Shown here: positions 1-63,957 of the stretch, one piece after another
How the letters are laid out: every line of letters begins with the position of its first letter
How positions within the stretch are numbered: position 1 is the first letter of the stretch
Source: Carcharhinus amblyrhynchos
Taxonomy: Eukaryota
Reading direction: 5' to 3'
Assembly: GCA_965287045.1 (NCBI GenBank)
Contig: OZ336885.1
Location: 63,922,001 to 63,986,000 of the forward strand
Length of the DNA: 64,000 nt
Translations under genes and position numbers: made by a program
The notes under the pieces: generated by a model
What the model was told of the DNA's origin: nothing
The model's input: only the letters and a program-made list of their open reading frames with translations
The model's database searches: none

Positions 1-4
1 ATAC

Positions 5-31
5 CTCTTTCTTTTGCCTTAAGATTCGATT
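5..31 (-). CDS. Micro-exon, 27 nt, phase 1: (E)SNLKAKER
   Basis: cacctcgacag|AATCGAATCTTAAGGCAAAAGAAAGAG|gtat; the donor is cut by the window edge. Confidence 0.6.
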
Positions 32-544
32 CTGTCGAGGTGTAACAGGCAACCAAAGGATTTTGAATTTATCGAGTGAAGAGGCACATTGGAAAATGTT
101 GTTTGTGAACACAGTAAGTCAGTAAACGGTATTTAACAGTTGGTATCCCAAACTGCTAATGTTGTCATTATTACTTGATTGAATTTGAATTCGACGAACA
201 CTGCGTTGCTTTGGTAACACTCAAAACAAGTCCACATCCGTTGGTTCACGAAAGCCAAGGAAGAATACTTTTTAGGTTATCAATAGTCACAATGTAAGTA
301 ATGCCACAATCGGTTCGCACAGAGAATCCCATATAATGGATAATTGTAATTAGGTGCTGTTTTAAATTGGTCATCAATAATAACGAGGAGACAAACATTT
401 TGCACTGATACTAGTTTCAAATTTGCGCCAGAAGATGATAGGTCACAAGAGCGCAAATCTCGAAATGCACCTGTTCAAATAGGCAAAGATTAAACAACAC
501 ATATGTACTGTTCTTTCACTGACAAAGGTAAATAAGGATATCAT

Positions 545-1100
545 TTTGAACATGTATACAAAACTGGTGAGGGAATATCCTGGGTATTGTGTGAGTTTCT
601 GAACAACACATTACAGGAATGACATAATTGCTGTGGAGAGGCTTCAAAGGACATTGATAATAATGTTGTCAGGGTTAGAAATGTGTAGCTTTGAGGAGAG
701 AACAGGTAGGTTGCGGTTATTTTTCCTTTGAAAATGAAAGTGCACAAATATGACTTGTGAGAGGAAGAGATAGAGAGGACATTTTTTTTTTCCTTCGGTG
801 GAAACTTCCAGAACTAGTGGAGATAGATTCAGGATAAGTGGATGAAGGAGCACCGGGGACGTGATAAACAGTGCTTTGTAGCAAGGGGTGTTGTATGTAT
901 GGAATTCCTTGCCGAGTCGATGGTTGAGGAAGACAGCCAGAAAGCTTTTACAATCTAGTATCGCGACCTGAACCGTGAACTTTCTCATCAACAGGTCGAT
1001 GAATGCATTGCCAGCTGAAATTAAAAAGGTGGTTGGGTGTCTTCAGACTGGCATGGACATATTTTGTTCGATGATCTTCTTTTGTGCTGTTTCTTGTTGA
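545..1100 (+). mobile_element. Degenerate CR1 LINE 3' fragment
   Basis: Remnants of YKTLVR..CV.F..HYRNDIIAVERLQR, VWNSLP, and a ggcatggac..tgtgctgt tail. Confidence 0.7.
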
Positions 1101-1304
1101 TTGAACTTTATATCCGTATTGGCTCTCATATGACGTTCAGCGATTTTAAAGGTACATGATTTTCGAAACGAGCAGTTGAAAATGTAAACGAATTTGGATA
1201 TTCGGTTCCGATCCCTGCCAATGAAGAGATCACATAGCCTATTCAGAAACAAACCAAACAGAAATTGTGGAAAACCGAGCAGGTGGAGAACATTCCCCCA
1301 TCCC

Positions 1305-1348
1305 ACCACCCCCCCCCCCCCCCCCCCCGCCACCCCCCCACCCCCCCA
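1305..1348. repeat. Poly-C tract (G-quadruplex-prone on the minus strand)
   Basis: Near-pure C run. Confidence 0.85.
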
Positions 1349-1978
1349 ACTTTGCTCAAACCCAAGTTGTCTCATCCATATGAAATCGCATCATGCAAAA
1401 CGTGTTTTTGTTTTCTGATGGACATCGATCTCATCCTTACACTGATTTAATTAATTCATAGAATTTGTTCAGCAAACAAACATTTATGCTTTGAGTGTAC
1501 AGCAATTGCAGCAACATGCATCACCTGCAAGATGCATTATGTGAAGGAACAGATTTCTTATGTCGGACCTTGAAAACCCACAGCTACTACCAGCTGGCAT
1601 AACAACGAACGCATGCAAAATACGGAGCATGACCCGGAAGCTCCCTTCAAGTCGCCGCCCATTCTCATTTGGAAAAGTATTGCAGTACCGTCACTGCCAA
1701 CGAATCTAAAGCAGGAATTTAACTCACAATGTGCCTCGTGAGTGTGTGACAGGGAAGAGAGTGCAGTCATTGCTAACTCCAATTTTCGTGGCAATGAATC
1801 ATCATCGGTGCAACGGTGCACACAACAAGATAAAGGATATTAAGAACTCATAGTCATTTCAGCTAGGTCCATCTTCCACTTATCTATTATGTTACACTCC
1901 GCCCCCCCCCCCCCACCTCTTCTCCCAAATCTCTTCAGGAGTTGCGTTGATGAGATGTTTTCCATCTTTTCGAGATAC

Positions 1979-2026
1979 CTGGCGCTCGTCGCTGATGATG
2001 ACAATGTTCAGCTTCATTGGTGACTT
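1979..2026 (-). CDS. Candidate exon, 48 nt, phase 1: (E)VTNEAEHCHHQRRAP
   Basis: ctttactaactcag|...GCGCCAG|gtatct; multiple of 3 and open, but the acceptor is only moderate. Confidence 0.4.
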
Positions 2027-2517
2027 CTGAGTTAGTAAAGCAATCCACCTCCAAAAGCCTTTCAGGTTTGGTAAGTCGCATACACTCCACGGGTGTGCCG
2101 GAAATACAACATTGCTAACAGAAGAAAATATCTCCTCATAATATCACAGACTTAACTCCAATCTTGTCACCGTCTCTGGACTCAGAATGAACTTCGTAGA
2201 TGCTGATAGTGCCAGAACGAATTCCATTCTAGTCGAAACTCATGCATAGCTGCTATCTCCATACCAAATTGATGTTCGCAGCAGATTAAAAAAAAGCCTG
2301 AGTGCAAAGATGCCAGAAATAATAGATACATTGCCATCCCCACGAACTGTTCGCTGACGAACGATTTATCTAGATAATTGATGGTGCTTGTCAAAATGTT
2401 TAAGATTTAAATATTAATTAGGTGTTCAATACTGTGTCTTTATGCAAATGCAATTAAATTCTACATTGGTATCAGAGACGATGTCATTGTCAATTCATTT
2501 GCTCAGCGTTTTCTCAC

Positions 2518-2553
2518 CAGATTCTTCAAGTTTAGCCGTAAGATCTTTTATTT
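2518..2553 (-). CDS. Micro-exon, 36 nt, phase 1: (E)IKDLTAKLEES
   Basis: tttttttttgcttctgattaccag|AAATAAAAGATCTTACGGCTAAACTTGAAGAATCTG|gtgaga. Confidence 0.8.
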
Positions 2554-2856
2554 CTGGTAATCAGAAGCAAAAAAAAACTTTTGTTTCGACGTTTAATTTT
2601 GCTGTTTTACAACAACACTACTGCTGGAATGAAGATTTAACAGTCGTAATAACATGATTCCGTGCTCTTGCAGATGAAGGACATTACGATTATATCACTT
2701 ATGCTATGAAATCACAAAATATCCACTGCATTTTTTACAGAATGATTTTCTCTCCCTTGAATACCATTCATGAAATTCAGATTCAAAATGAGGGCGCTAC
2801 AGTTTGAGGTAACACCAATGACAAAAAGTTCGTGCAAATTGCATTATATAGCTCAC

Positions 2857-2862
2857 CTGAAT
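2857..2862 (-). CDS. Candidate micro-exon, 6 nt: (Y)S
   Basis: cctttctccaatataaaatag|ATTCAG|gtgagc; needed to avoid a T+AA stop between its neighbours. Confidence 0.45.
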
Positions 2863-3321
2863 CTATTTTATATTGGAGAAAGGTTAACAGTTGTAATTGT
2901 TGGCAGCATAAGTTTTTAAAATGCATTCCTCATGTTTGCTACACTGAAATTATCAGAGAAGTCAAAGTGAGAAATTGCATTATACATCAAAATGTACCAA
3001 ACGTTGCTGGGATGTATTACAACAAAATACTGAAAGTTTTTTTTGTGTGTGTTACTGGTATCTGATGCAATTGTGTCTCTTTCTGATTTATCAAATGCCG
3101 CTGATTGTCATTTAAATATGTTTGAACGCACCAGCTGTCTCGTCGTTTACGTTCCAAGACAGTCCCTCCAACTAGCGCTTCATAACCCTATCAGAATTCC
3201 ATGCAAAAATATTTTCTTTGGTAGAAATATTCCAAATACGAAGACGTAAGTATTTGTTGTTTGTGTTGCCTGTGCTTTATATTAGTGAATCCTGAGTCTT
3301 GCATTACTGATTCATAATTAC

Positions 3322-3360
3322 ACGCATTCTTGGTAGAGGCATTTCCACTGTAATTCGTTG
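3322..3360 (-). CDS. Micro-exon, 39 nt, phase 1: (P)TNYSGNASTKNA
   Basis: Strong T-rich acceptor ...tttcttag, donor CGT|gtaatt; two N-x-S sequons. Confidence 0.6.
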
Positions 3361-3559
3361 CTAAGAAAAAAAAAACAATGTTAACCTGGCGCCATCTCAC
3401 CTCCGCCAATCCAATTCTGGAATTGTGAGGTGAGAGCAATGGCGCCAGAGACTGGACTGATATAACTGAAGCCCCTACCCCTCACTCTTCAGTAAACTAC
3501 AATTAAGGACACAGCTGGAAGTATTAGCAGCACTTTTATGAAATGTATCATCCACACAG

Positions 3560-4190
3560 ATAAGATTGAGGCGAAGGGATTCAGAGAAGGTGATGGAGTT
3601 AAAAGGACGTGAGATTTGTGGAGTTTTATGGAAAGTGGCTGTGACAAAACCTGTAATAGATACAAGCAGGAACTGAAATTCACGAGAAATTGAGACCGAC
3701 GTCACGGCAGGGAAGGAAAATGTTGGAGATAGGTCATGTGAAGATGCACGAGAATTTGAAGACCAGAAGTGAACTTGATTTTTTTTTTACACATCCAGGT
3801 AAGAGAATGTTGTGTCAATGAAAACAGTCCTACCGATGAAAGAGTTGTTGGAGCGCAAAGTAAGACAGGGAAACAAAGGTTCAATATATTCCAAAAGGCA
3901 ACAGGCATAACTGATACGCACCTGGGTCCTCAGAGCCACACACCTTCTTGGCTGGATTTGAGGCAGGTTAAGCAGAAATAGTAAAGTGAAGATGAAATTG
4001 AGTCAGATGTAGGAAAGTTGCTATGGATGGGAATTGCTTGGGCCACTGGTCGATGACAAAAAACAGAGAGTTAACAACACATCTTGGTTCAGAATGGCCA
4101 CATAGAGGGAATGGATATTCACGGCAAAAAACAGGCGGTTGATTCACGGTTTTGGACGTTATATACAATTTGGGAAATCCTGGGCAACAC
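3560..4190 (-). mobile_element. Very old L2-like LINE 3' fragment
   Basis: Minus-strand remnants resembling the L2 ORF2 C-terminus (LNQ.V.NL.V..DP; LLVFK..PYL). Confidence 0.45.
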
Positions 4191-4199
4191 ATTACTTAC

Positions 4200-4226
4200 G
4201 GTTGATCTGCTGATTATCTTTGATTT
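4200..4226 (-). CDS. Micro-exon, 27 nt, phase 1: (E)IKDNQQIN
   Basis: ttcgttcttgctcag|AAATCAAAGATAATCAGCAGATCAACC|gtaagt. Confidence 0.75.
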
Positions 4227-4899
4227 CTGAGCAAGAACGAAATTAACATATTCATAATGATCCAATACTAAAACACTTTAGAGTCTATAGGCAGAACTCA
4301 AAAGGGTGGACAATTTTCCCTTCTGCAATTAGTTTTATGCTGCACGTTCTCCTTGCAAAAGTAATACAGAATCGTGAGTTTCGAGACCTTCAGAGACAAT
4401 GGGTTGCTCAGCTTGAACGTGCCTTGTTTGGTCTCTGTTATTCCCTGCGGTGATTTTTTTTTTCAATCACAATGCTAAAAATAATATCTATGTCCGCCTG
4501 CAAAGGATGGTAGGATATCCGATATTGATGTTGGGTTCACTTATCTGAGCATTTTCTTTGAATTGAGTTCATTAAATAAATGCAATATTATAGATTTCTA
4601 TGAGCAATATGATTTACCGGACGGCATATATGCTTTTAGTAAGCTCCACAATGCTCGTGTGCAGTCTCAAAAGGAAGACCAGCAACGTTACTTAATTTGT
4701 TCTCTTCCAAACCACTTATACACAGAGGAGGTTGATGATATGGGCTTCAATTAGATGTGTCACTGACTCTGCTTCGTAAGTGATCAAAGTATTTCACGTC
4801 TGATACTCAGAGAACGGATGGCCAAATCACTCTTGTCAGGAATTTTCATGAGACATATCCGATTGTGTTCCAAGTTAGAAAAGAAACATGTTTGTCTTA

Positions 4900-5318
4900 T
4901 GTTACACAGTGCATGGGCACTGAAGAAGAGAAAGGGTTAATGAATGATGTACTTAGAATTTGTGCACTAGCATTGCAAACCTTATCTGTTTATGCAGGCT
5001 TTTGTGCCAACTAAACATAGCTAAAGAGCTGCAGACGCTGAACCGCGATAACGGCTGTTTGTAAGGAGCTGCAATCGAGACTGGAGCCATAAGAACTGTG
5101 GTCGTGACTGGAGCTGGGAACTGAGACTGTGACTGGGCCCGGGGACTGTGTCGCGACTAGGAGTGGAATACATAATATATAAATATCCACACTTACTTGT
5201 ACTTGGGGAGAAGTCTGCCAGATCGCTTCATGAAACAAATTCTCCCAAAAGCTTTTGTAATAAAGACACTGTAATTTGACTCAGTCACAACCTCAGAGGT
5301 ATTATTTTACCTACAACA
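4900..5318 (+). mobile_element. Possible solo LTR
   Basis: Internal gactggagc-type repeats, TATA-like tatataaa, AATAAA then a terminal ...ctacaaca; 5' end and TSD not identified. Confidence 0.4.
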
Positions 5319-6366
5319 GGGACCATGTGCTGAAGCAGGCATGAACATGTTGTTTGTTTTCTTGGCCAAAATAAACACAGAGACTATTTATTCCATGACT
5401 TTTTTTTTCAGATAAAGTAAGCAACGGTCCGTTATTCTATTCCTGGCTTTTAGTTGTTCCAAGTGTATATTTCCAATATTAAATACGTCCTGTGAACATC
5501 TGTTAAGAAATAACGGAAGCTCATTATTTATTTAATGATTTAGCATTTTATGTTCAGGTATAATGCCTGCGAACATTGTTTGATCGTGCACCTCGACATA
5601 TGCTTTGTGAACCCTAACATATCAATCGATTTCATAAGCCTCTGCCCCGTTCCAAAATTTGGTGCATTATTCTTATCAAGCTGGAAGTAAAAAAAAACAT
5701 GTAAACTTTTTTTTAGGAAAGACAATAACATTTATATGTGCAGAAATCCATTAGAGGTGTCGGTGCTTTTGAAGAAAGAAGTCTGTCGAAAAGTTGCCTT
5801 CGTCTTTTGCTTTGATTTTCCAGAGTGTTTGGGGGTGCAGAGTGAACAGCACAACGTCGAAAGAAACATAATATTTATTGTGTGAGTGAATTTCATTATG
5901 GTAAAACAAAACATGCTACACACAAAATGCTAAATGGAATTACATGTTGATTGTATCCTGGATACATAACTCATGGCCGTTCAGTTCAATACTCATGATA
6001 CAGAGTTCAGCGGACATAGTTGCTGGACACTCTTAGATGGCCATTCTGTTTATGTTCGGCTGGGCACATTATAATACATGTCAACAGAAACCACATTGTG
6101 CCTATCGCCATATACTGCACTGTACGTTAACGATGCCATTTTAAATGCAAACAATACGCTTGCAAAATGTTTAGAAGCAATAATATTTGTCATATCAAAT
6201 AACAGTAAGCCACTTGTTGCTCACTTAGATCTTTTAGGGATCGTTGACAGTCGCTCAGATCTGCAATTCAGAAAATGGAAAACCCAGTCTGAAAAAATGA
6301 ACAAGAATTGACAGATGTCCTATTGCATGAACGTGGACTTTAATAAGTTTGCTTGGTACATCTTAC

Positions 6367-6387
6367 CCGTTGGTGTCGACGAAACGA
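6367..6387 (-). CDS. Candidate micro-exon, 21 nt, phase 1: (F)VSSTPT
   Basis: Strong donor CGG|gtaaga, weak aag acceptor; needed to avoid a T+AA stop between exons 7167-7178 and 4200-4226. Confidence 0.45.
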
Positions 6388-6599
6388 CTTTTCAGGACAC
6401 AATTGCGAAATTGCAGATGATGTCAACCAATGAATTAGAAGAAGGGAATTTGATGATACGGTAGACGTCTGCAGACAGTCTTAGAGAATGTGAACACAAA
6501 CTACAGGTTACAGTTATGGACAACTGTTTCGCATGCAGTTAGAATGCAAGACAATCATGTATTTTAACATTGTATAGAATTTGACCCTGGGGCTTCTCC

Positions 6600-7050
6600 T
6601 GGGAATTATTAAATTGCAGCCATTGAAGTGAGCATGGAGTTGTCATGAAATCAATGCAGGATGCTTACATTTGGGGAAATGCAAAGCAGGAAACAGACTT
6701 CCTGGTAAACCCGCATGGGACTGCAGTTCTGACTCAAGTAGAAGATCGTGGATAATATGGGTATCACAGTTCAGCAAGAGGTAAGGATGTCACCGAGGGT
6801 GACAATACATTGCTGAGTCTCCAAGAACAAAAAATGTATACGCCTACGTGGGGGACTTGGGGTAATTTGCAGCTCCGGGGACTTCTTACGATAAAGTTGA
6901 ACTTATACTTGATTAAGATTTGGAATGACATGAACATGGAATGACGGCAGAACCTTTTAATACTTGGACTGGTTATGAGGCCAAACATGTTCGGTGATTG
7001 GAAGCAAAACTCGGCGAGGCATTGGGAATAAATAGGGTTCTGCAGATCGT
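6600..7050 (+). mobile_element. Degenerate CR1 fragment
   Basis: Remnant of the M.FN..C..LHFG..Q..F.VN region downstream of RT. Confidence 0.5.
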
Positions 7051-7166
7051 TCAGCTCAGTAGTGCATTACCAAATAATATTTTGAGCGCATATTTCAATA
7101 TAATGAAAAAATGAACGCTGCATCAATTGTTTTTCTTTCCCCTGCGTGGATTGCTAAATTACTCAC

Positions 7167-7178
7167 ACAGAGGACAGG
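7167..7178 (-). CDS. Micro-exon, 12 nt, phase 1: (A)CPL
   Basis: cttcttctttccctctatacag|CCTGTCCTCTGT|gtgagt. Confidence 0.7.
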
Positions 7179-7300
7179 CTGTATAGAGGGAAAGAAGAAG
7201 CGTGGCTTCATGCTGTTCTTAAATCAATCATATTATTTGATTTGGTGCCAATGCTGAAAGTCTTTTCAAAAGAGTCGTTTGCTGCCAAGCAGAGTGGTAC

Positions 7301-7488
7301 GGCGCAGCACAGTAGCACAGTTGTTAGGAGTGTTGTCTCACAGCGCCAGAGAGCCGGGCTCAATTCACATCTTGACTCACTGCCTGCGCGGTGCCGACAC
7401 ATTTTCTCCGCGTCAGTTTGTGTTTCAACTGGTTCCCTCCCACGGATCGAAATACGTGCTGTTAGTTAAATTAGCGATGTCAAATTAT
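7301..7488 (+). mobile_element. HE1-like tRNA V-SINE (old)
   Basis: gcagcacagtagcacagttgttag..ctcacagcgccag..; homologous to the young copy at 51498-51835. Confidence 0.8.
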
Positions 7489-8259
7489 TGTTCTTAAATG
7501 TGAGGAACAGCCAAGTCTTCCGAATGCGAATAGAATCTTCCATTGATTTCACTGCTGCAAATCCTTATGGAGAACAAAGAGGTATTGTGCAGGAAAATAC
7601 AACTTGCAGTGGCAAAGAACCGCAATTTATCAAAGCCGCACAATTAATTTTGCTAAAGTATTATCTCTGAAAACATGAATAACGAAACGGAACACCACAT
7701 TAATTCTCGTGACTTAACCTCTGACAATGTAGAAACTCGGCCTTCCATGAACATGAACATTAACATTAGTGAAGAGGCAAATGCTTGTTCACTAAAATCA
7801 TGTCACGCAAAGATCGTGTCTGCATATATGTTGTCAGGCCGTGCCACATTAAATCGAGGTGTTAGAATGTACTTTTTTGTTATTATTTTCCTCTTGCTTT
7901 TCCTTGAAAATTTTCAATCCTGATTTTGGAAATGCTGAGAACTTCCTCATGATTATCATTCAGCACAGAATAGAAGGGCATCGCCGAGCCGTTTGCACCT
8001 GTTCGAACGTTGTATTTTACACGGTATCTTTTTCAGGATTGCAAAAGTCATAAATCCTCACCGCCTGAAGGAACAGGGCTTTCCAAGAAAAGATACGAAT
8101 TTTATCAGAGGTCTGACAACGAAGAGGCTTAAATATCCTCATGATAATTTGAGCCGAGATCTCAAATGGAAGCTTAAGCTACAGTAGAGTTATGTTTCAG
8201 ACTTTGGTTTATTCGTCGTCTATTTCGACAGTCATATATTACATTATATTTCCACTAAC

Positions 8260-8274
8260 CGTTTTCACATTTCT
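8260..8274 (-). CDS. Micro-exon, 15 nt, phase 1: (E)KCEN
   Basis: tttctttctttctgttacag|AGAAATGTGAAAACG|gttagt. Confidence 0.7.
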
Positions 8275-8839
8275 CTGTAACAGAAAGAAAGAAATTATTG
8301 TGAAAACGATGATCCAATTAAAGGTAATTTTCTCGAATTACAATAATCACGTGGCTGCAGAAACTACTGTTAAGCTGAATAGAGAAGTGGAGAACGTTTA
8401 GAATGATATTGAATGGTTCATATTATTTTGATAACCGAACAGTCTATTCCGTCTTTAATCCTACATTGTGACCAATCGTTTTGTCGAAAAAAAAGTCAGT
8501 GGTGGAACTCAAGTTGGAACATGCAGCAAGATTAATTGAACAGCGATCCTCGGATTTCATGAGTATTCTGTGCGATCCTCCTTTCCCTGCTGGGTATCCA
8601 GATATTTTTTTTCAATTTCAAGTCAACAACTTGTTATGCTCACCCGAAATCTCCAAACACGTAGTTATTGCGCATGCATCTTCATTTAAATTCAGTGCCA
8701 GATCATTGTGCAGGCTGAACCAACACAGTGAGCTATTGAAACAGGTTGAGTAGCGCAAAGTCCTAATGTCCTGGTGGGGTTTTCAAAGAAAGATTTTCAC
8801 GCGGGGCCTTCTGAAAGACGCCGAAACAGACTTAATTTA

Positions 8840-8900
8840 AATAATAATAATAATCATCATCATCATCATCATCATCGTCGTCATCATCATCATCATCATA
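8840..8900. repeat. (AAT)n(CAT)n compound microsatellite
   Basis: Directly visible. Confidence 0.95.
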
Positions 8901-9032
8901 ACCGTAAACGCCCAACACTTCACTCTCTCCTATTTCAATTAGAAAACCAGGAAGTTGTGTCTGTGTAAATGTAAAATAATCAGTAGGAAATGAAATTACA
9001 GTATAACGTAGTTTTATTTTTAATTTGTTTAC

Positions 9033-9068
9033 CTAAAGCTTTTGCTGTTTCTTCATATTTGCTGAACT
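9033..9068 (-). CDS. Micro-exon, 36 nt, phase 1: (E)FSKYEETAKAL
   Basis: attatgtatttcag|AGTTCAGCAAATATGAAGAAACAGCAAAAGCTTTAG|gtaaac. Confidence 0.7.
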   Translation of the reverse strand, partial: SSANMKKQQKL

Positions 9069-9738
9069 CTGAAATACATAATGTTACTTTACAACAAGAA
9101 TTATGCTGCAGGTATATTTTAAATCAGCCTTGGAAACTCTTAAAACTTTTTCTTCAGTAGATGATGCATTGCACATATTGATTCCTCGACTTGAAAATAA
9201 AACATTCGTAAACAGTTAGCGTGAAAATATAATCGTACTTGACTGCAAGACGGAAATGCTTGTTCTCTACAGGCGAACTTGAAAATGATGCAAACTCAGG
9301 TTGACATTTCATGAATTGTTGCACGAGAAAATACAACAATCTTGAAACGCTTGACAAGGTGTCTCCTCACATTAAACCATTTTTTAATGTTCACCAGTCA
9401 GATCGAGGTGGAGATGGGAATAATTTAGCTCACCAAATGAGATGGTTCTGCAGGTTGACGAATTCGGCCTTTTCGAAATGGATGATGTTAAACAGGCGGC
9501 GTTCAGAGAAAAAGAAAACAAGAAGAAAATGAACACAAAGAAACGGCGGCATGCACAAGTAGGGCCAAAGGGCCTGCTTCCATGCCTTTAACCTCTATGA
9601 TTCTGTGACATCATCTATTCAATATCAAGTATGATAAATGCCTGCAATCTGGCGCTCTTCCAGCAGAGACAATTTGCACAACAACGTTCCTGCTAATCAA
9701 GTGAAACCGCTGAGTACCTGTGCAGTATGTAAACTTAC

Positions 9739-9753
9739 CCTTCTTTAACTTTT
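9739..9753 (-). CDS. Micro-exon, 15 nt, phase 1: (E)KLKK
   Basis: ctgcacaaatcacag|AAAAGTTAAAGAAGG|gtaagt. Confidence 0.75.
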
Positions 9754-9959
9754 CTGTGATTTGTGCAGATAAGTTTAAAATATTTGGTTAATTTTGGTAT
9801 CTCCCCATTGGAGGTAATTAGTTGATACATTAATATTTAAATACACTAGCAACAGCACTATTCTCTTCTGAACACTAATATCGTTATAGAAAATACGATT
9901 CTTGGGGTTTAATCCAATCGAATCCGGCACGATTATATTGAGTGAAGGAACACATTCCA

Positions 9960-11600
9960 GTGCCAAAACGCCGACTCATATTCCCATTCCATTTGTCATT
10001 ACGTTCTGCCATTAAATGTGATCTTGGCCGGCCATTCAACTCAACCGACCTTTCCCCATGCACCTGATGTATGTGTAATCCAGTACTCTACCCACATCAA
10101 CGTGTAAACACACTCAACGATCAACCTGAATGGCTTCAAGAGATCTCCAGAAATCGGCGAACATCCGAGAGGGCTCGAATCACATTTTCTCATTGCTAAA
10201 TAACGTCCTTTTACCGCCAGCTGCAAGACCGTGTTCTAAGCCGGCCAGATGAAGTAACATTCCTGCATCGAGTCAATCGACTCCAGTGCGAATTTCATCA
10301 ATGTGAGTTTAACCCACTCTTTCTTATTTATGCACAAGTGAATGCGGAAGCCGATACAATTTGTCCCCATGTGAAAAAACGGAAATCCCAATAATACTTT
10401 TAAACGTTGGTGCATCTCCAATCCGACAATTGTATTCTACCCTATATAGTTAAGCATAAATGCCGAAATCACGTGTTCTCTTTCATCGAAGGAAGCATAA
10501 CACTTGCCTTCCTCATTGCTTGCCAAAAACGTTGATTTCATGTTTTTTTTTGCCGAAGATCAACCAGATGCCTTTATCTTCCGATATGTCTTTCCTTTAT
10601 TTACGTTTTCAACAATGCCGTCTGACTCCCGTTTCAAATGGATAACATCATATTTATTCTGATTATAATGGATCATTTTTACGTCTGCCTGTTCACTCAA
10701 CATATCCACATCACTTTGCTGGACTGTAATGTAATCCGCACCATGCAGATTACCACCAAATGTCAGCAGTATATTTGAAAATGTTACATTTAGTTCTGCC
10801 ATGCAAACAATTTATATGCATTGTCAGTAGCAGTTCCCAAACACTGATCCTCGCAGGAAAAGGCTAGTTGCAGTCTTTCTCTTTGAAAACCGTCACTGAA
10901 CTTATTACCTGCTACGGAATTATCAATCAATGACACCGATGCATTCTTAACATGTGATGGCCTAGGTGTCACAGTTGGACAAAAACGCTGAAGAATAATG
11001 GGATTTTAAGACTAGTTTTGTTGTGGCAGCATGCTGAAGTTGACAGCAATCGTGACGAGTCATAGTTTGCAATCAGAAACTGGCATTTAGTTCTTGATAT
11101 ATTTCCGTCGGAAAACACATTGCAAATATTTAGCAAAAACAGAAAAAAAAGCTGGAAGTGTAATTGTTTAGTACAGCAATTTTGCAACTTTCTTTTTATT
11201 CAATTCATCGTACCTTTTTTCAAGTTCAGTTGTTTACGTTCAGGACACGTGAATAATACTGGGAGCTGTAACCGGTTACTCCAACATATTCATGCTTTAC
11301 AATCTAGTGGAGTAGTGGACGTTTTGATGCTGAGCCATTTTCCCCAATTACAAATGGTGATCTATTTCCTGACAATATACGAACATAACAAATGGAATAA
11401 GATGGAGGATGTTTGCCACATCCAACATCCACAACCAATCCACAATAATAACAGTGATCTAATTATGCCTCAGTTCCAATTCAACCATGCTCCTTGTAAC
11501 CAGTACTCAACAGGGCAAATGCCAGCTGCAATCGTTAGCCTCGTTTCTATATTCACAGATGTTTAGAAGCTCTTGATTATGGGCAAAATTTCGAAATCAT
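9960..11600 (-). mobile_element. Degenerate CR1 LINE (RT and 3' end)
   Basis: ORF remnants like QSDVDMLSEQA..M.YN..K.DVIHL and QGSVLG; CR1 3' tail near 10000. Confidence 0.7.
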
Positions 11601-12542
11601 TTCCGATTTCCAGCACTTATTTTACACTATTGTGATCCAACTGTTTTTGAACTTCGTTCAGCATAAAGATTTAAGGTTAAGTACATTTATTTGTGTTTAT
11701 CATGTGATAACGAATATACCACGCTGAATGGTAGTGCGCATACCACAAAATACCAACTTTATCTCTGAACTTATTTAATGGCAGAGCATTATTAAGGGTC
11801 AGAATGCTGTCTCTGCTCCCAATTCATTCGTTCTGTTCTTTGTTCAGGATCAGTTATTTGAGCTTGCTATTATATACCTCAGAACTTCACTTAAAATTTG
11901 CTATTGTAGTTACGCTAAACGTGACACGTTATCAAATGTCTGTTTTAATCGAAATGCTCCTAAGACTATGTATTGCCCTCTATCCACGCTGTTGCATTAA
12001 TCAGAAAGGGAAAAAAAAGCTGATCAATCAATCATGATTTCCCTTTGACAAAAGCATGTTACTATTAATTGAATATATTGTAGTTTTTCTAAATGTGCTT
12101 CTTCCACTGTCAATATTTCTCACGGCATTTGAGTGTGCAATATTGAGGGTTGCTTCTCCTACATGTTCCATCATTTTGACTCCATCTGCATATTTCACAG
12201 AGCTGGTTATTTGGTCATATGCTATTTACTGTTATGTTCCAAATGAATTTCCGCCTGACTATTATTAAAACGTAGCAAACTATTGTTACCGCGTCAGATC
12301 ATGACTTGTTTCATTACAGTGTTGAGGATTGGTTTAACCCATCCAAACTGAGCACCATATGCATTTTGGAATCGTTTGCTAACATAATGCCCAACATCAA
12401 GAACAGAAAACCATACACTATTAACAAGTTGCACTTCAATTTGGTAATCTCAAATGTTTTTCATATGTTTAACTGTAATATATATATATATAAATATGAT
12501 TTGTGTGAAAGTTGAATAGTGCAATTAATAATGCTTACTCAC

Positions 12543-12578
12543 CAAATTTATAATGAAGTTCTTTGCAGTCGCTCAGTT
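12543..12578 (-). CDS. Micro-exon, 36 nt, phase 1: (E)LSDCKELHYKF
   Basis: ttttttgttatccgtgttgacattgcag|AACTGAGC...AAATTTG|gtgagt; only phase 1 is open. Confidence 0.8.
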
Positions 12579-12675
12579 CTGCAATGTCAACACGGATAAC
12601 AAAAAATAATAAACTAACTACAGCTTAAATTGCCACCGGAAAGAAAGTTAATGTTTATTTTCCATATTCACATAC

Positions 12676-12684
12676 CTACAGCTT
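12676..12684 (-). CDS. Micro-exon, 9 nt, phase 1: (E)AV
   Basis: gatttgcag|AAGCTGTAG|gtatgt; 97-nt intron to the next exon. Confidence 0.55.
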   Translation of the reverse strand, partial: KL

Positions 12685-12828
12685 CTGCAAATCTATCATG
12701 TTTCAATTGCGAAGGTGTCTAGTTGTTAATTGATCTGGCAAATCTTCCGCATTATGCAAGTCTCAATAACACATTTCTGTGGCCGCAGTGGAAGGACCCA
12801 CATCCAGCAAATTGTCGTGACTTGCTAC

Positions 12829-12849
12829 CATTCTTAAATAAATAATTAT
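12829..12849 (-). CDS. Micro-exon, 21 nt, phase 1: (D/N)NYLFKN
   Basis: ctttttcttttcttattttctgcttag|ATAATTATTTATTTAAGAATG|gtagca. Confidence 0.65.
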
Positions 12850-17790: not shown

Positions 17791-18355
17791 CATCCTCATG
17801 TGTGAACTTTTGAAAATGACACAAGGCGGTCCGAATTTATCACCAATTTGCGCCCGTTTTCGGGTGTGGAATCGTGGTTAAGTCGAGTGTGACGTCTTCA
17901 TCGCGATCTGCACCCGCGTACACCAGATCGCCACTTTCGTGAGACCCACGAATAGGAGAATCCGTTCCGGGCCCAAGTCGGGCACTACGATGACTTAAAA
18001 GCATTTGCATGCATTTAAATTAAAATAATGCACTGCCGCCCAACTCTATCAGCATTTCCTCCTTTTTACCACCGCGTTTACCAAACCGTAACAGCGCTTT
18101 TAGGGACCTGCTAAGTAAAAGTCTGAATCAGGCGCTTCCTCAGTGAGGGTTGGCGAGGAAGTCGCTGCATGGCATCCGAAAGCTCTCAGCTACTCAAGTG
18201 TGTCCTGTTATTGTGGCCATTTCGCAGTCTCGGGTCGGTGGCAGTTCTGCGATTGTTAGGGTTTCGTGGGCGGGAGGGGGTGGGGGGAAGTGAGTGGTAG
18301 CTGTTGAGCTGTTGCTGTGCTCGATGTCCAGTGTTTGTCTGGCAAAACGGGCTAA

Positions 18356-19630
18356 TTGATCTTGCTATTCTTCAGATTGCCGCTGGAGCTGAGGAGGAGG
18401 AAATGGAGGAAGAATTGCTGGCCCAGGAGGCGCGGGCCGGACCATTTAGAGGAGTCGAATGAGACGACCATTAGAGGCAGGATGTGGACATCATTCATCC
18501 AGAGCAGGGGCTTTGGAGAAGGACGGGACAAAAACCTCGGCAGTTCCGTGCACGAATGCCGTTCGAGGAGATGTCCGACACCATATGCTGCCGACGTCTC
18601 TGATTCTGAAAGGATACCATGTGACACCTATGCAACCTGTTGCAGGAAAAGGCGCCTAAGTGCGGAGCTGGGGGCGGGGTGGGGGGGGGGGGTGGGTGGC
18701 AGGGGGGACCCGCTCTCAGTGTCTGTCAGATTGATGGCTGCTTTCAACATTTATGAAACTGGTGCATTCCAAACCCCGATCGTAGATGTCTGTGGTATAT
18801 CCTTGTCTTCAGTCTTCACCCGTGTCAAGCAGGTCACTGAAGACCTGTATGCCCAGGCTGGTCAAAACGTCAAATCCAACCTGGAAAAGGCCCATCTGGA
18901 CTCCGGGGCTGTGGAGATCGTTGCAATTGCGCGGGTGCTGAATGCACAGTGAGCGGTCGGCTGCACCTATGTCGCCCTCAGGGCCCCCTACACAATCCAC
19001 GGCAATTTGTTAATAGCAAGGGGTTCCACTCCCTGAATGTACAAATTGTGTGTGACAACAATATGAGAATCATGAACGACTGCGCGAGACATCCAGGCAG
19101 CTTGCATGACAAATCCATTGTAAGGAGGTCAGACATCCCGCAAGTATTTGAGAGCCCAAACTGCGGGGGTGGCTTCTGGGTGATATGGTTTACTCGCTTC
19201 CGACATGGCCGATGACGCCTCTGCGGAGGCCAGTGACTGCTGCGGAGACGCGCTATAATGAAGTCCATGTAGCCACCCACATGACAGTAGAGAGCTGCAT
19301 TGAGATCCTCAAGATGAGATTCGGGAGCCTGGACCTATCCGGAGAGGTCCTCCAGTGAAGCCTCCTGATCTCCTCCTGCATAGTGGTGGTTTTTGCAACT
19401 TGCACAATCCAGTTTTGCAGCGATGTGACATCTTGGAGGAGGAAAAGGGCGTGGAGAATGATCAGCTGATTGTCACTAGAGATGATGTGCGGCAGGAGGA
19501 CGAGGAAGGGGAGGAGGAGAAAGAGGAGGATGAAAACACCTTGAAACGCCTGTCAGATGGTGCAGGGCTGGGATCTCAGGTGAGGCATGGAAGAGCGGCG
19601 AGGGAGGCTCTGATCATTGGGTGGTTCAGT
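18356..19630 (+). pseudogene. Harbinger (HARBI1-like) DDE transposase, frameshifted
   Basis: AAFNIYETGAFQ..DVCGIS; NSKGFHSLNVQIVCD..CARHPGSLHD; WLLGD..W.MTP.R..ETRYNE.H..E.CI.ILKMRF. Confidence 0.92.
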
Positions 19631-20199
19631 CGCTCGAGGATGGCGATTCTGGGTTCCATACCATCACCCCCGCCACCCCGGAACTACCTTCCATTTATCC
19701 TCTACATTGTCGCTCTAGAGTGGTGGGCCCTTGTGCTCGGTGCTCGCGATATCTTTTCCAGACAGGAGGACGCTGACGTTGAGCTAAGCACCATTCTCAT
19801 AACGCCCTGGCGCAATTCAGTCTGACTGTTGCCTGGGACTCACATGCACGCTAGCACCTGGGTCCACAACTGTCTAGTGGGTAAGGGTACCGAAACCCCC
19901 ATACAAGGCCCTGGTGCGAATGGGATGCAGGGCGGGAGGTCATCACTCATGGGGTGTGAGTGTCCAATGGTTTCGTTTTCTTAGTTACACCACATTGAGG
20001 GACCACAGCATCTGATATCACCATGAGATATCCATGGGGTGATTGTCAAGACAACTGTTTGCAGGTAGCTGTGGAGAAAAAAACATATATTTACAATAAA
20101 GGTGTTCCTGTAAGATGGTGAAACTCAGATACTTGTAACGAGAAAGCAGTACGTTGCTTATGGTTCTTTATAATCAGGGCAGCTTTTTCTCCGTGCCTT

Positions 20200-22504
20200 C
20201 TCAGTGCAGCTACAACTTCGAGCCTTGCGCTGCCTGGCACAACGCCTCAGGCACTCTCCAGAATATTCATCAGAGATGGAGGGGGTCAGCTGCCGACTTC
20301 ATCCCGTGGCCTGTGATGTGTGTGGCGGGCGGCCTCTGGAGGCCCTGGATCCCGAGGGGCCTGGCTGGCTTCCAGCTGTCCAGGATGTTTCCATGACACA
20401 CTCTTCATTCCACTGCGCCTGAGATGTCCCAGTGTCAGGAAGGGGAGAGTCAGAATATGTTGCCATAGCCACAGTCTCCTGGCTAGAAGACCCAGTCCTG
20501 GGTTTGTGCACTTACTCTCCTCTGTTGGGGTCACTTTCTTGCTTCCTGGGTCCCTTCATGGGCTACTGGTTCTTCTGCAGTGAACTCCAGAAGCTCAGGT
20601 GTCACCTGTCACAACCAGTCCTGGAGGACCATTTGCATCCTACCCATCGTAGTCGACCCCTTCGCGATGTCCATTTGAGTAGTGGACCATCTCTCAATGT
20701 CCGCAGCAAGTGCCCTCTGAGACTGGACTATCCTCTGCAAGGCCTCGCTGTGGCCCTCTGAGACTGGGCCACCTTTTCAAGGGTTGCTGTCATTGCCCAC
20801 AGTGTCTCAGATTTGTCCCTCTGGACCTTCTGCAAGCTCGTAAACCTCTCAGCCATGGACCGAAGAATCTCAACAAACCTGCTCAGTCCCTCCGCTGTGG
20901 TTTGCTATGACTTGGCCACTACTTGGAGCTTGCAACCCATGGTGAATAACCCCTGCCATAGGATTTCCACAGCAGGCGCCATCTATGCTTTGTTGTCAAA
21001 GGAAGCACGCAAGATACGCAAGAGCTGCTCTATCTGAAAGCTTTGGGACTCCTCCCAGCAGCCTCACAGTTGGTCCAGTGTGGCCGTTAACCCCTCCTGA
21101 TTTCCCTGGCTCTGTTGCTGCATCTCCAACAGCTGAGGGAGAAGTGATCTCAGATGACCAACGTGTAGCCTAGGGCCAGCTGTGTCTTCACCTCCAGCAA
21201 GCCCCCGCATGCCAAAAGCCTTGGACTTTTCCTACTAAGCCCACGGTACATCAGCAGACGTGTTGTCCTCTCCAGAGAGTGACCCAGAAGCCTCAACACT
21301 AACTGGACCACCGACGTGTATGTTTCTGCGATGTTGAGCTGTGAGGTGAAGGTTGACGGATAAATGGTGCCACCCTCAGCTGTCCCTTCACCCAGATCCT
21401 CTGGAGACTTTTCCGAGCTGTTGCTCTCATTATGGGTGGGAGCTGTAGCCGGGGCACGTGGTCCAGACGGCCCTGGGATTTCAGGATTTGTCCCTGAAGC
21501 ACAGGACGAGGTTCAGTTGAAAGGGAGCGATAGAAATCCGGGATGTCACACACAGGAATCACATGACTGCCTTGAACATAGAACATTGAATCCAGACAAT
21601 TGCATCACAGGGCCAGGCCCTTCGGACATCCAATCCTGTAGGGACCACGCTGCCCATCTGATTTGTTTGCCCGCATATGCCTCTGTTCCCATTCCATTCA
21701 GATATCTGTAGACATGCCTCTAACGTCTCCCTATTGTTTCCGCTTCCACGACTTCCCCGGCAGCCAGTTCCACGCGCCCATTATCCTCTAAATGTCAATA
21801 AAATTCCTCGTATGTCTCCCTTACACCTTGCCCCTTGCACCCGGAAACCTTGCCCCAACAAGTTGCCTTAGTGTGAGGTATGTCAGGTGCTCACATCTGG
21901 ACGGCAGGCTGTCGGTGACAGCCCGCGCCTTTCCTTCTCTGGTGATCTCCAGCGCCCGTTCCTCGAATGGGGTGAGGACATGGAGGTCCTTTCACCAACC
22001 CCTGTCTTCGACCTCTCTCGAGTGTTGCGCTCGGCCTTCCTCTGTGGAGACAGATGAAATACATGGTGGCGTGACTCATGCAGAGAATAAGGTCGCGACC
22101 CTCAGAGGGCAAACACACTGGTTTTCATTGGGGGGAAAGGATGGAGGTGCTTGTGGGTCAGGAACTGGAGCATGTAGGATACTGGAAATAGGAGAATTAT
22201 CTGATTAATTCTGGGGGAGATATGGGAGAGCATGATGAATGGGGTTCAGCCCTCACTCTTGCTGCACAGATGAAGTCATTGTGTTTTTATTTCGACTCTG
22301 CCTCGCTGTTCGGTGGGTGAGGTTGTGAGTTGGGATGTATTCTGGTCCTGACCGAAGCGCCGACTACCTCCCAGGCCGCATGGCAATCAGCCCCCTGTGT
22401 CTGCGTCCTCCTAGGAGGGAAAATGTGGCCCGCCTCGCCTCTGCTGCATCCAACAGCCTTCCCAAGTCGTCATTAGAGAATCGGGGAGCTGACCGTGCTT
22501 GCAT
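20200..22504 (-). pseudogene. Harbinger Myb/SANT-like DNA-binding protein (spliced, degenerate)
   Basis: ATG at 22504: MQARSAPRFSNDDLGRLLDAAEARR; exon ~21895-22041 RERSKTG..VLTPFEERALEI; 3' extent uncertain. Confidence 0.8.
21574..21865 (-). mobile_element. CR1 3' end nested in the Harbinger
   Basis: aacatagaacat tail, ggcccttcgg, reverse complement of WNWLPG. Confidence 0.75.
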
Positions 22505-32925: not shown

Positions 32926-32961
32926 CTAAATTATTCAGTGATTTTTCCCAGTCTTTTAGAT
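32926..32961 (-). CDS. Micro-exon, 36 nt, phase 1: (N/D)LKDWEKSLNNL
   Basis: ttttattttactgcacgtag|ATCTAAAAGACTGGGAAAAATCACTGAATAATTTAG|gtgaga. Confidence 0.8.
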
Positions 32962-33669: not shown

Positions 33670-33684
33670 TCTTTGCTGTTTTGT
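33670..33684 (-). CDS. Micro-exon, 15 nt, phase 1: (D)KTAK
   Basis: tttttttttctgcatcacag|ACAAAACAGCAAAGA|gtaagt; acceptor resembles that of 9739-9753. Confidence 0.8.
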
Positions 33685-35902: not shown

Positions 35903-35938
35903 CAAGTTCGTTGACTTTGTTTTTCAAGTTTTCTATTT
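35903..35938 (-). CDS. Micro-exon, 36 nt, phase 1: (E)IENLKNKVNEL
   Basis: atatttgtgtttcag|AAATAGAAAACTTGAAAAACAAAGTCAACGAACTTG|gtgagc. Confidence 0.8.
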
Positions 35939-36720: not shown

Positions 36721-36747
36721 CTTCAGATTTTTGATTGAGTTCATTTT
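36721..36747 (-). CDS. Micro-exon, 27 nt, phase 1: (E/K)NELNQKSE
   Basis: cctcatctcgcag|AAAATGAACTCAATCAAAAATCTGAAG|gtatga. Confidence 0.75.
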
Positions 36748-49800: not shown

Positions 49801-50460
49801 AAGTAGACATTCACCCTATGAACGATATGATTCCTGTTACAATTAAAAATAAAAAACTAGCAGGTCAAGAATATTAAGTGTCCATGTTTCAGATTCACAC
49901 TACAATTCTTAATGAATCCGAAAATACAGTTAGTCTATTTGTTTTCTTGCTTCGTGGTTCGCATATTTCAACCATTTTGAAAAAAAAATCAGATATAATT
50001 GAAACGGGTGAGCTTATAAAGAGAACGAAGTGTTTACAACTTGTTTTTAATACAGTGGCAGACGTAGATGTAAAATAGTTCCGTGCAATTTTGGACATTT
50101 TCATGTTGGGTTAACTAAGTGTGAAGTCATCATACCCCTGGAAACTCTTATCGTGGCGCCTGCATATCTCTATAGACCACTTTCCTTTGCAAGTCCACTG
50201 TCCCCGTCAGATCCACATCGTTCGGAGCTCGTGTATGGACATCTATGCTGTCTAGGGGATTCCATGCCTTGGAAGATACATTGCCAACCCTCCACCAACT
50301 TAACAGGTTGACACATGTTTTACAAGATCGAAGTTATGGGGGAAAAATGAAATATATTACTGTTCACTCGTATATGCACATCAGAACAGCATCGTCATTT
50401 TGATTAATCTAAATATCTATCTACAGCTCTAATTGGATCGATTTTTTTTTCACCCATTCA

Positions 50461-53317
50461 TGCTGCCGGGATAGTTTCCTTGAACAGTGTGTGTTGGAGC
50501 CGACGAGGGAGCGAGCTATCTTGGATCTGGTATTATGTAATGAGGAGGGTAGAATTAGGGACCTTGCGGTGAAGGATCCTCTTGGGGAGAGTGATCATTG
50601 TATGGTGGAATTTCTGTTGCAGATGGAGGAGGAGAAAGTGGGTTCCCGGACACGCGCCCTTTGTTTGTACGGTAGGGTGAGAGAAGAATTGGCGAATGTG
50701 GACTGGGGGAGCACGTTGGAAGGTAGGTCTGTTGAGGAGCAGTGGAGGATCTTTAAGGAGATCTTTCTTGGTGCTTAGCAGAAATTTATTCCGATGGTCA
50801 AAAAGGACCGTAGGAGGAGGGGGAATAAGCCGTGGATAACGAAGGAGGTGAAGGAAAGTGTTAAATTAAAAGCGGAAGCGTTTAGAGTAGCTAAGAGTAG
50901 TGGGCGAGAAGAGTATTGGGAGAGGTTTAAATGTCAACAAAGATTGACAAAGAATTTGATAAAGAAGGGTAGGAGAAACTATGAAGCTGGTCTAACGCTT
51001 AATATAAAAAAAATAGCAAGAGTTTTTATAAATATATAAAAAGGAAGAGGCTGGCTAGGGTGAACGTTGGACCCTTAGAGGATGAGAAGGGGGACTTAGT
51101 GGTAGGGGATGGGGAAATGGCTGAGGTCTTGAATAACTTTTTTGTTTCGGTCTTCACGGAGGAGGATGTGAATACTTTGCCGGGTGTTAGAGATGGAAAG
51201 GTGGTAGGACTGGAGGGTCTCAATGACATTATTGTTACTAGAGAGGCGGTGCTCGACAGACTGGAGGGACTGATTGTGGACAATTACCCAGGACCGGATG
51301 GAATGCATCCGAGGGTTCTGAAAGAAATGGCGGCGGTGATAGTGGATGCCTTGGTGGTTATTTTCCAAACGTCGCTGGATTCCGGGGAAGTGCCGGAAGA
51401 TTGGAAAACAGCTAATGTTACGCCGTTGTTTAAGAAGGGTGCCAGGCAAAACGCAGGGAATCATGGGCCGGTTAGTTTAACGTCTGTTGCGGGTAAAATA
51501 GAATCATAGCACGCTACAATGCAGAAAGAGGCCCTTCGGCCCATCGAGTCTGCACCAAACACAATGCCACCCAGGCCCTACCCCCACATCCCTACATATT
51601 ATACCCACTAATCCACACATCCCTGGACACTAAGGGGCAATATCTTAGCATGGCCAATCAACCTAACCCGCACATCTTTGGACTGTGGGAGGAAACCGGA
51701 GCACCCGGAGGAAACCCACGCAGACACGAGGAGAATGTGCAAACTCCACACAGACAGTGACCCGAGCCGGGAATCGAACCCAGGATCCTGGAGCTGTGAA
51801 GCAGCAGTGCTAACCACTGTGCTACCGTGCCGCCCAGTGTATTAATTCATGGGATGCAGAAGTCGCTGCTTAGTTTAGCAACGGCTTCCCATTCCCTTAC
51901 TGTCCCCTGAGGTGTCAATGTCACTGGTGAGGCCACCGTTATGTTAGAATCCGTCATCAAGGAGGAAATAGCGAGGCATCTTGAGGGGAATTGCTTGATA
52001 GAGCAGACGCAGCACGGTTTCTTTAAGGAGAAGTCGTGTTTGACAAATTTACTGGAGTTCTATGAGGATGTGTCTAGGGCGGTGGATAGAGGAGAGCCGG
52101 TGGATGTGGTCTTCCTTGATTTTCAGAAGGAGTTCGACAAGGCACCTCACAAGAGGTTGTTGCAGAAGGTCAGGGGACATGGAGTTGGGGGTAGGGTGTC
52201 AGCGTGGATAGAGGATTGGTTGTCAAATAGGAGGCAGAGAGTGGGGGTCAATGGGTGTTATTCGGATTGGCGGATGGTGACTAGTGGAGTGCCTCAGTGG
52301 TCGGTGCTGGGGCCTCAGCTATTTACCATTTATATAGATGACCTGGAGGAGGGAACCGAGTGTGTGGTGTCGATATTTGCTGATGACACCAAGATTGGTG
52401 GAAAGGCAAATTGCGCGGAGGGTGTGGAGAGTCCACAGAAGGATCTAGATAGGCTGGGCGAATGGGCCAGGAACTGGCAAATGCAATTTAATTTTGGCAA
52501 GTGCGAGATGGTCCACTTTGATAGGCATAATGGTAGGAAGGATTATTACTTACGTGGCGAAAACCTGCAGCAGGCGACGGTGCAGAGGGACTTCGGGGTC
52601 CTTGTGCATGAGCCGCAAGAACCCAGCCTGCAGGTGCAGCAGGTGGTCAGGAAGGCTAATAGCATGCTGGCCTTCATAGCGAGGGGGTTGAATATAAAAG
52701 TAGGGAGGTCTTGCTGCGGCTGTATAGGACATTGGTGAGGCCGCAGCTGGAGTCCTGTGTGCAGTTTTGGGCGCCGTACTTACGCAAGGATATTTTGGCC
52801 TTGGAGGGAGTGCAGAGGGGGTTTACTAGGCTGATGCCGGAGTTGAAGGAGTTGAGCTATGAGGAGAGGCTGAATAAACTGGGCTTGTACTCGTTAGAGA
52901 TTAGAAGAATGAGGGGAGATCTCATTGGGACGTATAAGATGATGAATGGGATGGATAGGATAGAGGTGGAGAGTCTCTAACCCGCTCAGAAAGGACAGTA
53001 GGACTAGGGGTTACAGCCTCAAGATAAAGGGGGGGGGGGCGCGGTTTAGAACGGAGTTGAGGAGGAACTTCTTCACCCAAAGGGTGGTGAATCTCTGGAA
53101 TTCTCTGCCCATTGAAGTGGTGGAGGCTACCTCGCTAAATATTTTCAAGACGCAGGTTGATGGGTTTTTGATAAGCGAGGGGATTAGGGGTTTTGGGGAG
53201 AGGGCGGGAATGTGGAACTGAGCCATGACTGATCAGCCGTGATCTTATTGAATGGCGGGGCAGCCTCGAAGGGCTAGATGGCCTACTCCTGCTCCTATTT
53301 CTTATGTTCTTATGTTC
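50461..53317 (+). mobile_element. CR1 LINE, 5'-truncated, relatively young (end of endonuclease + RT + 3' UTR)
   Basis: PTRERAILDLVL, GESDH, PGPDGMHPRVLKE, QHGF, VFLDFQKEFDK, SGVPQWSVLGP, FADDTK; (TTCTTATG)n tail; several frameshifts and stops. Confidence 0.97.
51498..51835 (-). mobile_element. Young full-length HE1 SINE inserted in the CR1
   Basis: GGGCGGCACGGTAGCACAGTGGTTAGCACTGCTGC head, B box GGGTTCGATTCC, V domain, CR1-derived tail; splits SLTSVAGK|MLES. Confidence 0.95.
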
Positions 53318-56493: not shown

Positions 56494-56699
56494 TCATATA
56501 CTCGATGTCCACGACCTGAGCTGGGACCGATGCCCAGCCAGGATTCAAGACTGGAGTCGAGTCTGATTCTGACAGGGTCATTGTAAGTTGTCGTTAGAGG
56601 GATCAGTGCAGCAAGCCCCAGTTTGGGAGACAGGAAATGGCAGTTTGCTTTGTCCTGAACTCGCGGCATATGAAATGAGACAATGACAGTGCCTGTCCT

Positions 56700-63921: not shown

Positions 63922-63957
63922 CTGACTTCTTCAATGCAGCTTCGTTGGCACTGAGAT
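63922..63957 (-). CDS. Micro-exon, 36 nt, phase 1: (D)LSANEAALKKS
   Basis: tattttctgcattgcag|ATCTCAGTGCCAACGAAGCTGCATTGAAGAAGTCAG|gtgggt. Confidence 0.8.

Follow-up and report, generated by a model that had tools for sequence, protein, structure and literature searches.

Butyrophilins (BTN/BTNL) are described as ending in a B30.2 domain that is preceded by heptad repeats (PMC4046983, PMC8813856), and the account of the chicken BG genes gives them 13-36 exons of 21 or 24 nt (PMC4046983). Vespryns such as ohanin are presented as PRY-SPRY/B30.2-like proteins that bear a signal sequence and are secreted (PMC4566206), and the micro-exon genes (MEG) of Schistosoma as combining a signal peptide with many very short exons, the products being secreted and alternatively spliced (bioRxiv 10.1101/2023.06.21.545858). 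Our study concerns a 64 000 nt stretch of contig OZ336885.1 of the shark Carcharhinus amblyrhynchos (C16:63922001-63986000 in a genome of 2.9 Gb, hereafter the window), where an initial annotation had joined 14 short segments within window positions 5-12849 into one reading frame and read it as possibly an extracellular, disulfide-linked stalk. We estimate a probability of roughly 55 % that these segments are instead internal exons of one predicted 1.72-Mb gene, in which more than 220 symmetric micro-exons would encode a coiled-coil rod, likely secreted and no shorter than 2,250 residues, with a B30.2/SPRY domain at its end.

When 664 kb were scanned outward, 91 of 135 strong short candidates on the minus strand had a length divisible by three, compared to 23 of 70 on the plus strand, and sizes of 36 and 27 nt dominated. 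A splice-site and composition model, whose training set was 121 strong exons from beyond the window, was then run inside it. Minus- versus plus-strand counts in sequence outside the training set were 37 to 1 in 350 kb, 19 to 1 in 180 kb and 13 to 0 in the window, the last figure being distinct loci with a score of at least 10, counted with GT donors on the plus strand, where a single GC-donor candidate scored 15.2. The resulting catalogue holds 223 high-confidence phase-1 micro-exons on the same strand, amounting to 2,078 codons, from a scan that covered 1.62 of 1.72 Mb (all but C16:64.686-64.750 Mb and, within 65.28-65.345 Mb, four gaps; 'the scanned span' below). Exons of 27 nt (81) and 36 nt (68) lead the catalogue, followed by those of 21 nt (43) and 15 nt (12), and the 21-nt type lies almost wholly within C16:64.8-65.3 Mb. 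Upstream the array extends to approximately C16:65.44 Mb; downstream it runs to an intact, phase-1 terminal exon on the minus strand, 186 kb from the window (C16:63735737-63736258). Positions 1, 4 and 8 of the 36-nt exons are hydrophobic in 76, 88 and 80 % of cases, and position 4, in the core, is a cysteine in 19 of 66. The exon pattern is one of heptad repeats with cysteines concentrated in the core.

Such an array could also represent several shorter transcription units or isoforms, generated by alternative starts, internal polyadenylation or heavy exon skipping, in which case the window exons may not reach the B30.2 domain in one protein. A gene of 1.7 Mb would be very long, exon type shifts along the array, gaps of 20-30 kb separate confident exons, symmetric exons can be skipped in frame, and the public gene models of relatives span just 372-1697 aa. 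However, the array is continuous and one-stranded wherever it was scanned, and it contains no convincing inner second signal-like first exon or SPRY exon, given a signal scan that left out 64.93-65.345 Mb and a search that a domain-less terminal exon could escape. We consider this division into shorter units improbable. At C16:64.63-64.78 Mb a cassette of 36- and 27-nt exons is repeated in tandem, in six or more nearly identical copies, which indicates recent growth of the gene by duplication, and near the gene's 5′ end a five-exon cassette is duplicated (C16:65.37-65.42 Mb, ~22 kb, 83-94 % identity). The gene is likely to have grown as cassettes of 21, 36+27 and 36+27+27+15 nt were duplicated.

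The terminal exon matched the Pfam SPRY family with an E-value of 2.4e-13 and 50.7 bits (cut-off 26.3), and its structure model, of limited predicted confidence (pLDDT 63), matched the B30.2 domains of TRIM7 and BTN3A1 (E 3e-10 to 1e-9, TM 0.62-0.66). Profile and model together assign it to the B30.2/PRY-SPRY superfamily, and strand, phase and the continuity of the array predict that the window exons are spliced to it. No further SPRY exon was detected on C16 63.74-66.44 Mb among the 150 of 332 candidates that were scored, and no SPRY, immunoglobulin (Ig) or RING match at E < 0.1 inside the array over the scanned span. It is very hard to regard the locus as an unexpressed, decaying duplicate, a description to which we give almost no weight: several splice sites in the window are weak and retro-elements have inserted into introns, but the SPRY exon is intact and hundreds of exons are stop-free with strong splice sites. 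A comparison of little power points the same way, as window exon 6225-6260 is identical in X1, a sequencing run of related DNA, amid 36 substitutions elsewhere in the 1501 nt around it (2.4 % diverged). Run X1 acted as genomic DNA 2-3 % diverged, and no spliced joints were seen in it.

At the 5′ end of the array, and on the matching strand, lies a candidate first coding exon of 70 nt (C16:65457104-65457173, minus strand; ATG, 23 codons and 1 nt), 1.47 Mb upstream of the window. It is signal-peptide-like, with a hydrophobic core of approximately 9 residues followed by small residues. Among 1169 comparable open reading frames (ORFs), it was the best match to the first exon of a sister gene (C16:65827943-65828012), which fronts a plus-strand sister array; the two agree in length, in phase and at 35 of 70 nt (20.2 +/- 3.7 expected from the comparison set). 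A whole-genome DNA search with the first exon of the sister gene returned its self-match only. Another signal-like ORF, at C16:64.898 Mb, was dismissed for want of a good phase-1 donor, and among the ORFs listed near the 5′ end no recognisable domain was seen by eye.

The same giant gene might alternatively keep its rod and B30.2 domain in the cytoplasm, as in butyrophilin and BG tails, with the N-terminal exon acting as an uncleaved anchor or with a transmembrane exon having been missed. Exons of 21 nt are described as encoding the cytoplasmic coiled coil of BG proteins, and the B30.2 domain at the end of butyrophilins as cytosolic (PMC4046983); the present gene has its own block of mostly 21-nt exons (~64.80-65.27 Mb). 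A basic cluster follows the hydrophobic start of a Callorhinchus milii relative (P0149, described below), and sequons are not enriched. Set against this, the core of the candidate first exon is short for an anchor, and of eight hydrophobic, transmembrane-like candidates in the scanned span none was convincing, although a helix split over micro-exons would escape; the one candidate that was searched, at C16:65.403 Mb, proved to be a high-copy repeat. There was no match on C16 to the butyrophilin-type IgC domain (PF22705) among 87 candidates, no Ig match by tblastn with four butyrophilins in the scanned span, and the B30.2 domain groups apart from those of butyrophilins. A cytoplasmic orientation thus appears unlikely, although it deserves to be kept in mind.

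With regard to the window itself, all 14 segments of the initial annotation are present on the minus strand, each with AG before it, GT after it and a length divisible by three, and their 348 nt join into the reported peptide with no stop. An open frame over symmetric micro-exons is weak evidence alone, because 294 of 957 random 14-segment chains drawn from the plus strand as decoys (31 %) were equally stop-free and because open phase-1 segments of this kind, bounded by AG and GT, number 446 on the minus and 463 on the plus strand of positions 1-12849. The model, which penalizes composition unlike a coiled coil, separated the segments into three groups (coordinates here and below are those of the window, on the minus strand). 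Seven are strongly supported and are among the 13 strong loci: the 36-nt exons 12543-12578 (score 13.5, with an internal paralog at -45728 and no change in X1 among the differences listed), 9033-9068 (11.0) and 2518-2553 (22.4, paralogs at -18713 and -84712); the 15-nt exons 9739-9753 (17.0) and 8260-8274 (18.4, encoding a cysteine); and the 27-nt exons 4200-4226 (10.3) and 5-31 (11.8, paralog at 53599-53625), all in phase 1.

Five further segments scored 2.7-4.8, a background range that the plus-strand control also fills, and are uncertain. The 9-nt candidate 12676-12684 stands lowest at 2.7. The segment given as 12829-12849 has lost its GT donor in X1, where a GT is present 3 nt downstream and the window has GC, so that a 24-nt exon at 12826-12849 is possible in both. 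The 12-nt exon 7167-7178 (3.9) can be rated as moderate, since 36+15+12 nt restores a module of 21 residues; its splice sites are retained in X1. The remaining two of the five, 3322-3360 and 2857-2862, are considered together below. Two segments are unlikely exons: the 21-nt candidate 6367-6387 (-10.1), which is heptad-neutral and in X1 has a stronger acceptor and a weaker donor while remaining negative in total, and the 48-nt candidate 1979-2026 (-2.7). Furthermore, a strong 36-nt phase-1 coiled-coil exon, 6225-6260 (13.1), had been overlooked between two of the joined segments; it is paralogous to exon 63922-63957, flanks included, and forms a 36+27 module with 4200-4226. The 14-exon chain, which has neither start nor end, is consequently not likely to be an mRNA, as it omits this exon and includes two negative-scoring segments. 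The initial annotation is confirmed in part, with every segment present and about half of them solid exons.

The heptad register was followed by the number of codons separating the 36-nt exons. Exons 9033, 8260 and 7167 make an in-register module of 21 residues, as do 6225 and 4200, and 2518, 5-31 and two downstream exons hold the register over 35 residues, a module that 1979-2026 would disrupt. With 6225 restored, inclusion of either 3322+2857 or 1979 breaks the register, whereas their omission keeps it. Exons 12543 and 9739 (36+15 nt) give 17 residues, a break unless an exon has been missed, and no 12- or 27-nt exon to mend it was found between 12543 and 9033. The window is best explained as an irregular stretch of rod in which the register breaks at least once (36+15 nt), rather than as a separate glycosylated stalk.

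The proposed stalk consisted of helix, CxxxC/Pro hinge, linker with two N-glycosylation sequons, and helix. Both sequons lie in 3322-3360, a 39-nt candidate rich in Ser, Thr and Asn with a strong acceptor (8.7) and a weak donor (-1.7). This segment ends in T, so that its junction with 2518 is a stop unless the 6-nt 2857-2862 (acceptor -3.7, donor 7.4) intervenes, and both sequons therefore hang on this pair. As the model penalizes linker-like composition, and as splice sites alone give 3322-3360 a score of 7.0, similar to that of 9033 (7.1), we class it as uncertain rather than excluded, with 2857-2862 bound to it. A cluster of 27-30-nt exons rich in Ser, Thr and Pro, either mucin-like or a flexible break in the rod, lies elsewhere in the gene (C16:64.42-64.44 Mb; window numbering 499984-513108). 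The pair 3322+2857 could thus be a genuine linker of optional use, and this, the strong acceptor of 3322 and the stop-free join are what favour the exact chain, hinge and glycosylated linker included. The errors in the chain and the decoy result leave it very improbable. The proline of the hinge, encoded by 7167-7178, is serine in X1, and the segment as a whole would be approximately 5 % of a rod of more than 2,000 residues rather than a short stalk. The interpretation is accordingly supported in part: a coiled-coil helix in an extracellular, cysteine-linked rod is plausible, from evidence outside the 14 segments (the signal-like first exon, the lack of a detected transmembrane exon and the core cysteines), while the hinge and glycosylated linker are poorly supported.

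In the favoured gene, the exons would be spliced into a single mRNA from the signal-peptide exon through to the B30.2 exon, and two chains of the product would wind as a parallel coiled coil, stapled as a dimer by the core-position cysteines in the secretory pathway. At the roughly 0.15 nm rise per residue of a coiled coil, about 2,080 rod residues would hold the paired B30.2 heads ~300 nm from the N-terminus, and rod and heads may act as a long-reach molecule for ligand binding or for cross-linking. A number of observations weigh against this reading. The scores that the catalogue gives for 63.74-64.69 Mb are in part circular, this being training sequence, and the joined catalogue, which is incomplete, has 2 junction stops in 222 and no R-x-K/R-R motif. 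Of the 61 intervals that separate 36-nt exons, just 21 keep the register (13.9 +/- 3.2 when shuffled, p=0.026). Sequons are not enriched in the rod (4 seen versus 5.5 +/- 2.2 shuffled) or in the B30.2 clade, and P0149 has 3 versus 10.3 expected. The first exon is a candidate for a signal peptide as judged by eye and by paralogy, and the relatives P0140 and P0141, from a sister subclade, begin without an obvious signal peptide. TRIM B30.2 domains are cytosolic. The same is stated of butyrophilin B30.2 domains (PMC4046983).

Related B30.2 exons were found among the candidates scored: C16 has six, at 60.4-66.4 Mb, and C9 has one. In the B30.2 tree these exons, Callorhinchus P0149, Scyliorhinus P0140, Narcine P0141 and P0120 form a branch of 11 rows of their own (support 100/100, length 0.84), separate from 30 TRIM, butyrophilin (5 BTN rows), NLR and other rows. 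The tree was midpoint-rooted and support was read off it; a test of 12 rows as one clade (p-AU 0.298) is void, as it included a Heterodontus TRIM row. This clade, distinct from butyrophilins and TRIMs, has so far turned up only in cartilaginous fishes, and as the Callorhinchus, Scyliorhinus and Narcine rows share one branch, the family is likely older than the divergence between chimaeras and the sharks and rays. P0149 (1697 aa, named 'nuclear-pore anchor-like') has a hydrophobic N-terminus, a long, charged, helical, coiled-coil-like body, the same-clade B30.2 domain and 4 R-x-K/R-R motifs, compared to 0.63 when shuffled. P0149, P0140 and P0141 share the coiled-coil-like body and the same-clade B30.2, with SPRY the only Pfam family above cut-off, but differ from the shark gene in their shorter models and a B30.2 identity of 32-35 %. 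By sequence they are likely the same family under automatic names. The ESM Atlas gave generic SPRY clusters only, and no paper describing the family was found in titles and abstract openings, a search with subscription journals mostly outside its coverage. At C16:63.635-63.642 Mb, ~95 kb past the SPRY exon and on the same strand, micro-exons resume, probably those of the next paralog, which may end at a SPRY exon at C16:63.149 Mb. Plus-strand 21-nt exon candidates at C16:65.52-65.55 Mb, before the signal exon of the sister gene (65.83 Mb), possibly belong to another family member.

The remainder of the window contains further strong exons at 32926-32961 (36 nt), 33670-33684 (15 nt), 35903-35938 (36 nt) and 36721-36747 (27 nt), with scores of 13.5-17.7. 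The 27-nt paralog of 5-31 at 53599-53625 has a GC donor (12.3), and exon 63922-63957 (36 nt, phase 1, 18.3) marks the gene arriving from beyond the end of the window. A GC-rich insert with Harbinger-type transposase-like fragments (18350-21600, plus strand) sits within a 20-kb gap between confident exons, and CR1-like long interspersed element reverse-transcriptase fragments and a gag/protease-like remnant of a long terminal repeat element occupy 50400-53000 and 55500-57300 on the plus strand. On the minus strand beyond the window, an endogenous retrovirus-like remnant with gag-, RNase H-, dUTPase- and env-like frames (C16:64.253-64.259 Mb) lies in an intron, and ORFs at C16:64.025-64.026 Mb resemble an IQ-motif protein, possibly an intronic processed pseudogene. 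These elements were all recognized by eye.

If the favoured gene is correct, an immune binding domain that is normally cytosolic would cap a giant rod outside the cell, encoded across 1.7 Mb by 220+ coding micro-exons, with one of six related B30.2 exons on the chromosome arm, in a family common to sharks, rays and chimaeras. The relatives located in public protein sets bear automatic names that are unrelated. The gene would be relevant, too, to the origin of heptad-exon tails in butyrophilins and BG genes. The corrected exon chain illustrates in addition how little a stop-free join of symmetric micro-exons says by itself. More tentatively, and with somewhat less than even confidence, we suggest an undescribed, ancient cartilaginous-fish family of megabase genes with micro-exons by the hundred, whose secreted products would be coiled-coil rods with B30.2 tips, stapled by disulfides and measuring hundreds of nanometres. 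Here a tail like that of butyrophilins would face outward as an extracellular recognition molecule or matrix cross-linker, its length tunable by in-frame exon skipping.

In comparison with known systems, the design of the gene resembles the butyrophilin/BG tail, but no Ig match was found in the scanned span; nor is the gene a TRIM. Like butyrophilins, it places heptads, encoded by small phase-symmetric exons, before a terminal B30.2 domain, and among solved structures the clade profile matches the BTN3A1 B30.2 best (E 9e-32). Unlike them, it has hundreds of heptads rather than a few, a separate B30.2 clade, a topology predicted to be extracellular and no Ig or transmembrane exon that we could find. 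TRIM-B30.2 proteins (TRIM39/TRIM69/A33-like) share the coiled coil and C-terminal B30.2 and supply the named sequence matches, at 24-43 % identity; however, tblastn with three RING-bearing proteins gave no RING/B-box match in the scanned span, no convincing RING motif was seen near the 5′ end, and the B30.2 clades are separate. Vespryns, likened here by description only, offer a precedent for a B30.2 domain outside the cell, although these venom proteins are small, with an N-terminal extension that is short, and lack a giant rod. The Schistosoma MEG, from an unrelated organism, have 10-20 exons and proteins of up to 189 aa, with no B30.2 mentioned in the portion of the preprint available, and offer an analogy of gene design only. 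Chicken BG genes and their zipper protein are similar in exon structure, as many tiny exons encode a coiled coil there too and the shark gene has 43 confident exons of 21 nt. BG proteins nevertheless have an IgV domain, a transmembrane helix, a cytoplasmic coil and no B30.2, whereas the shark gene is built mostly of 36- and 27-nt exons, more than 220 in all, and carries a B30.2 domain.

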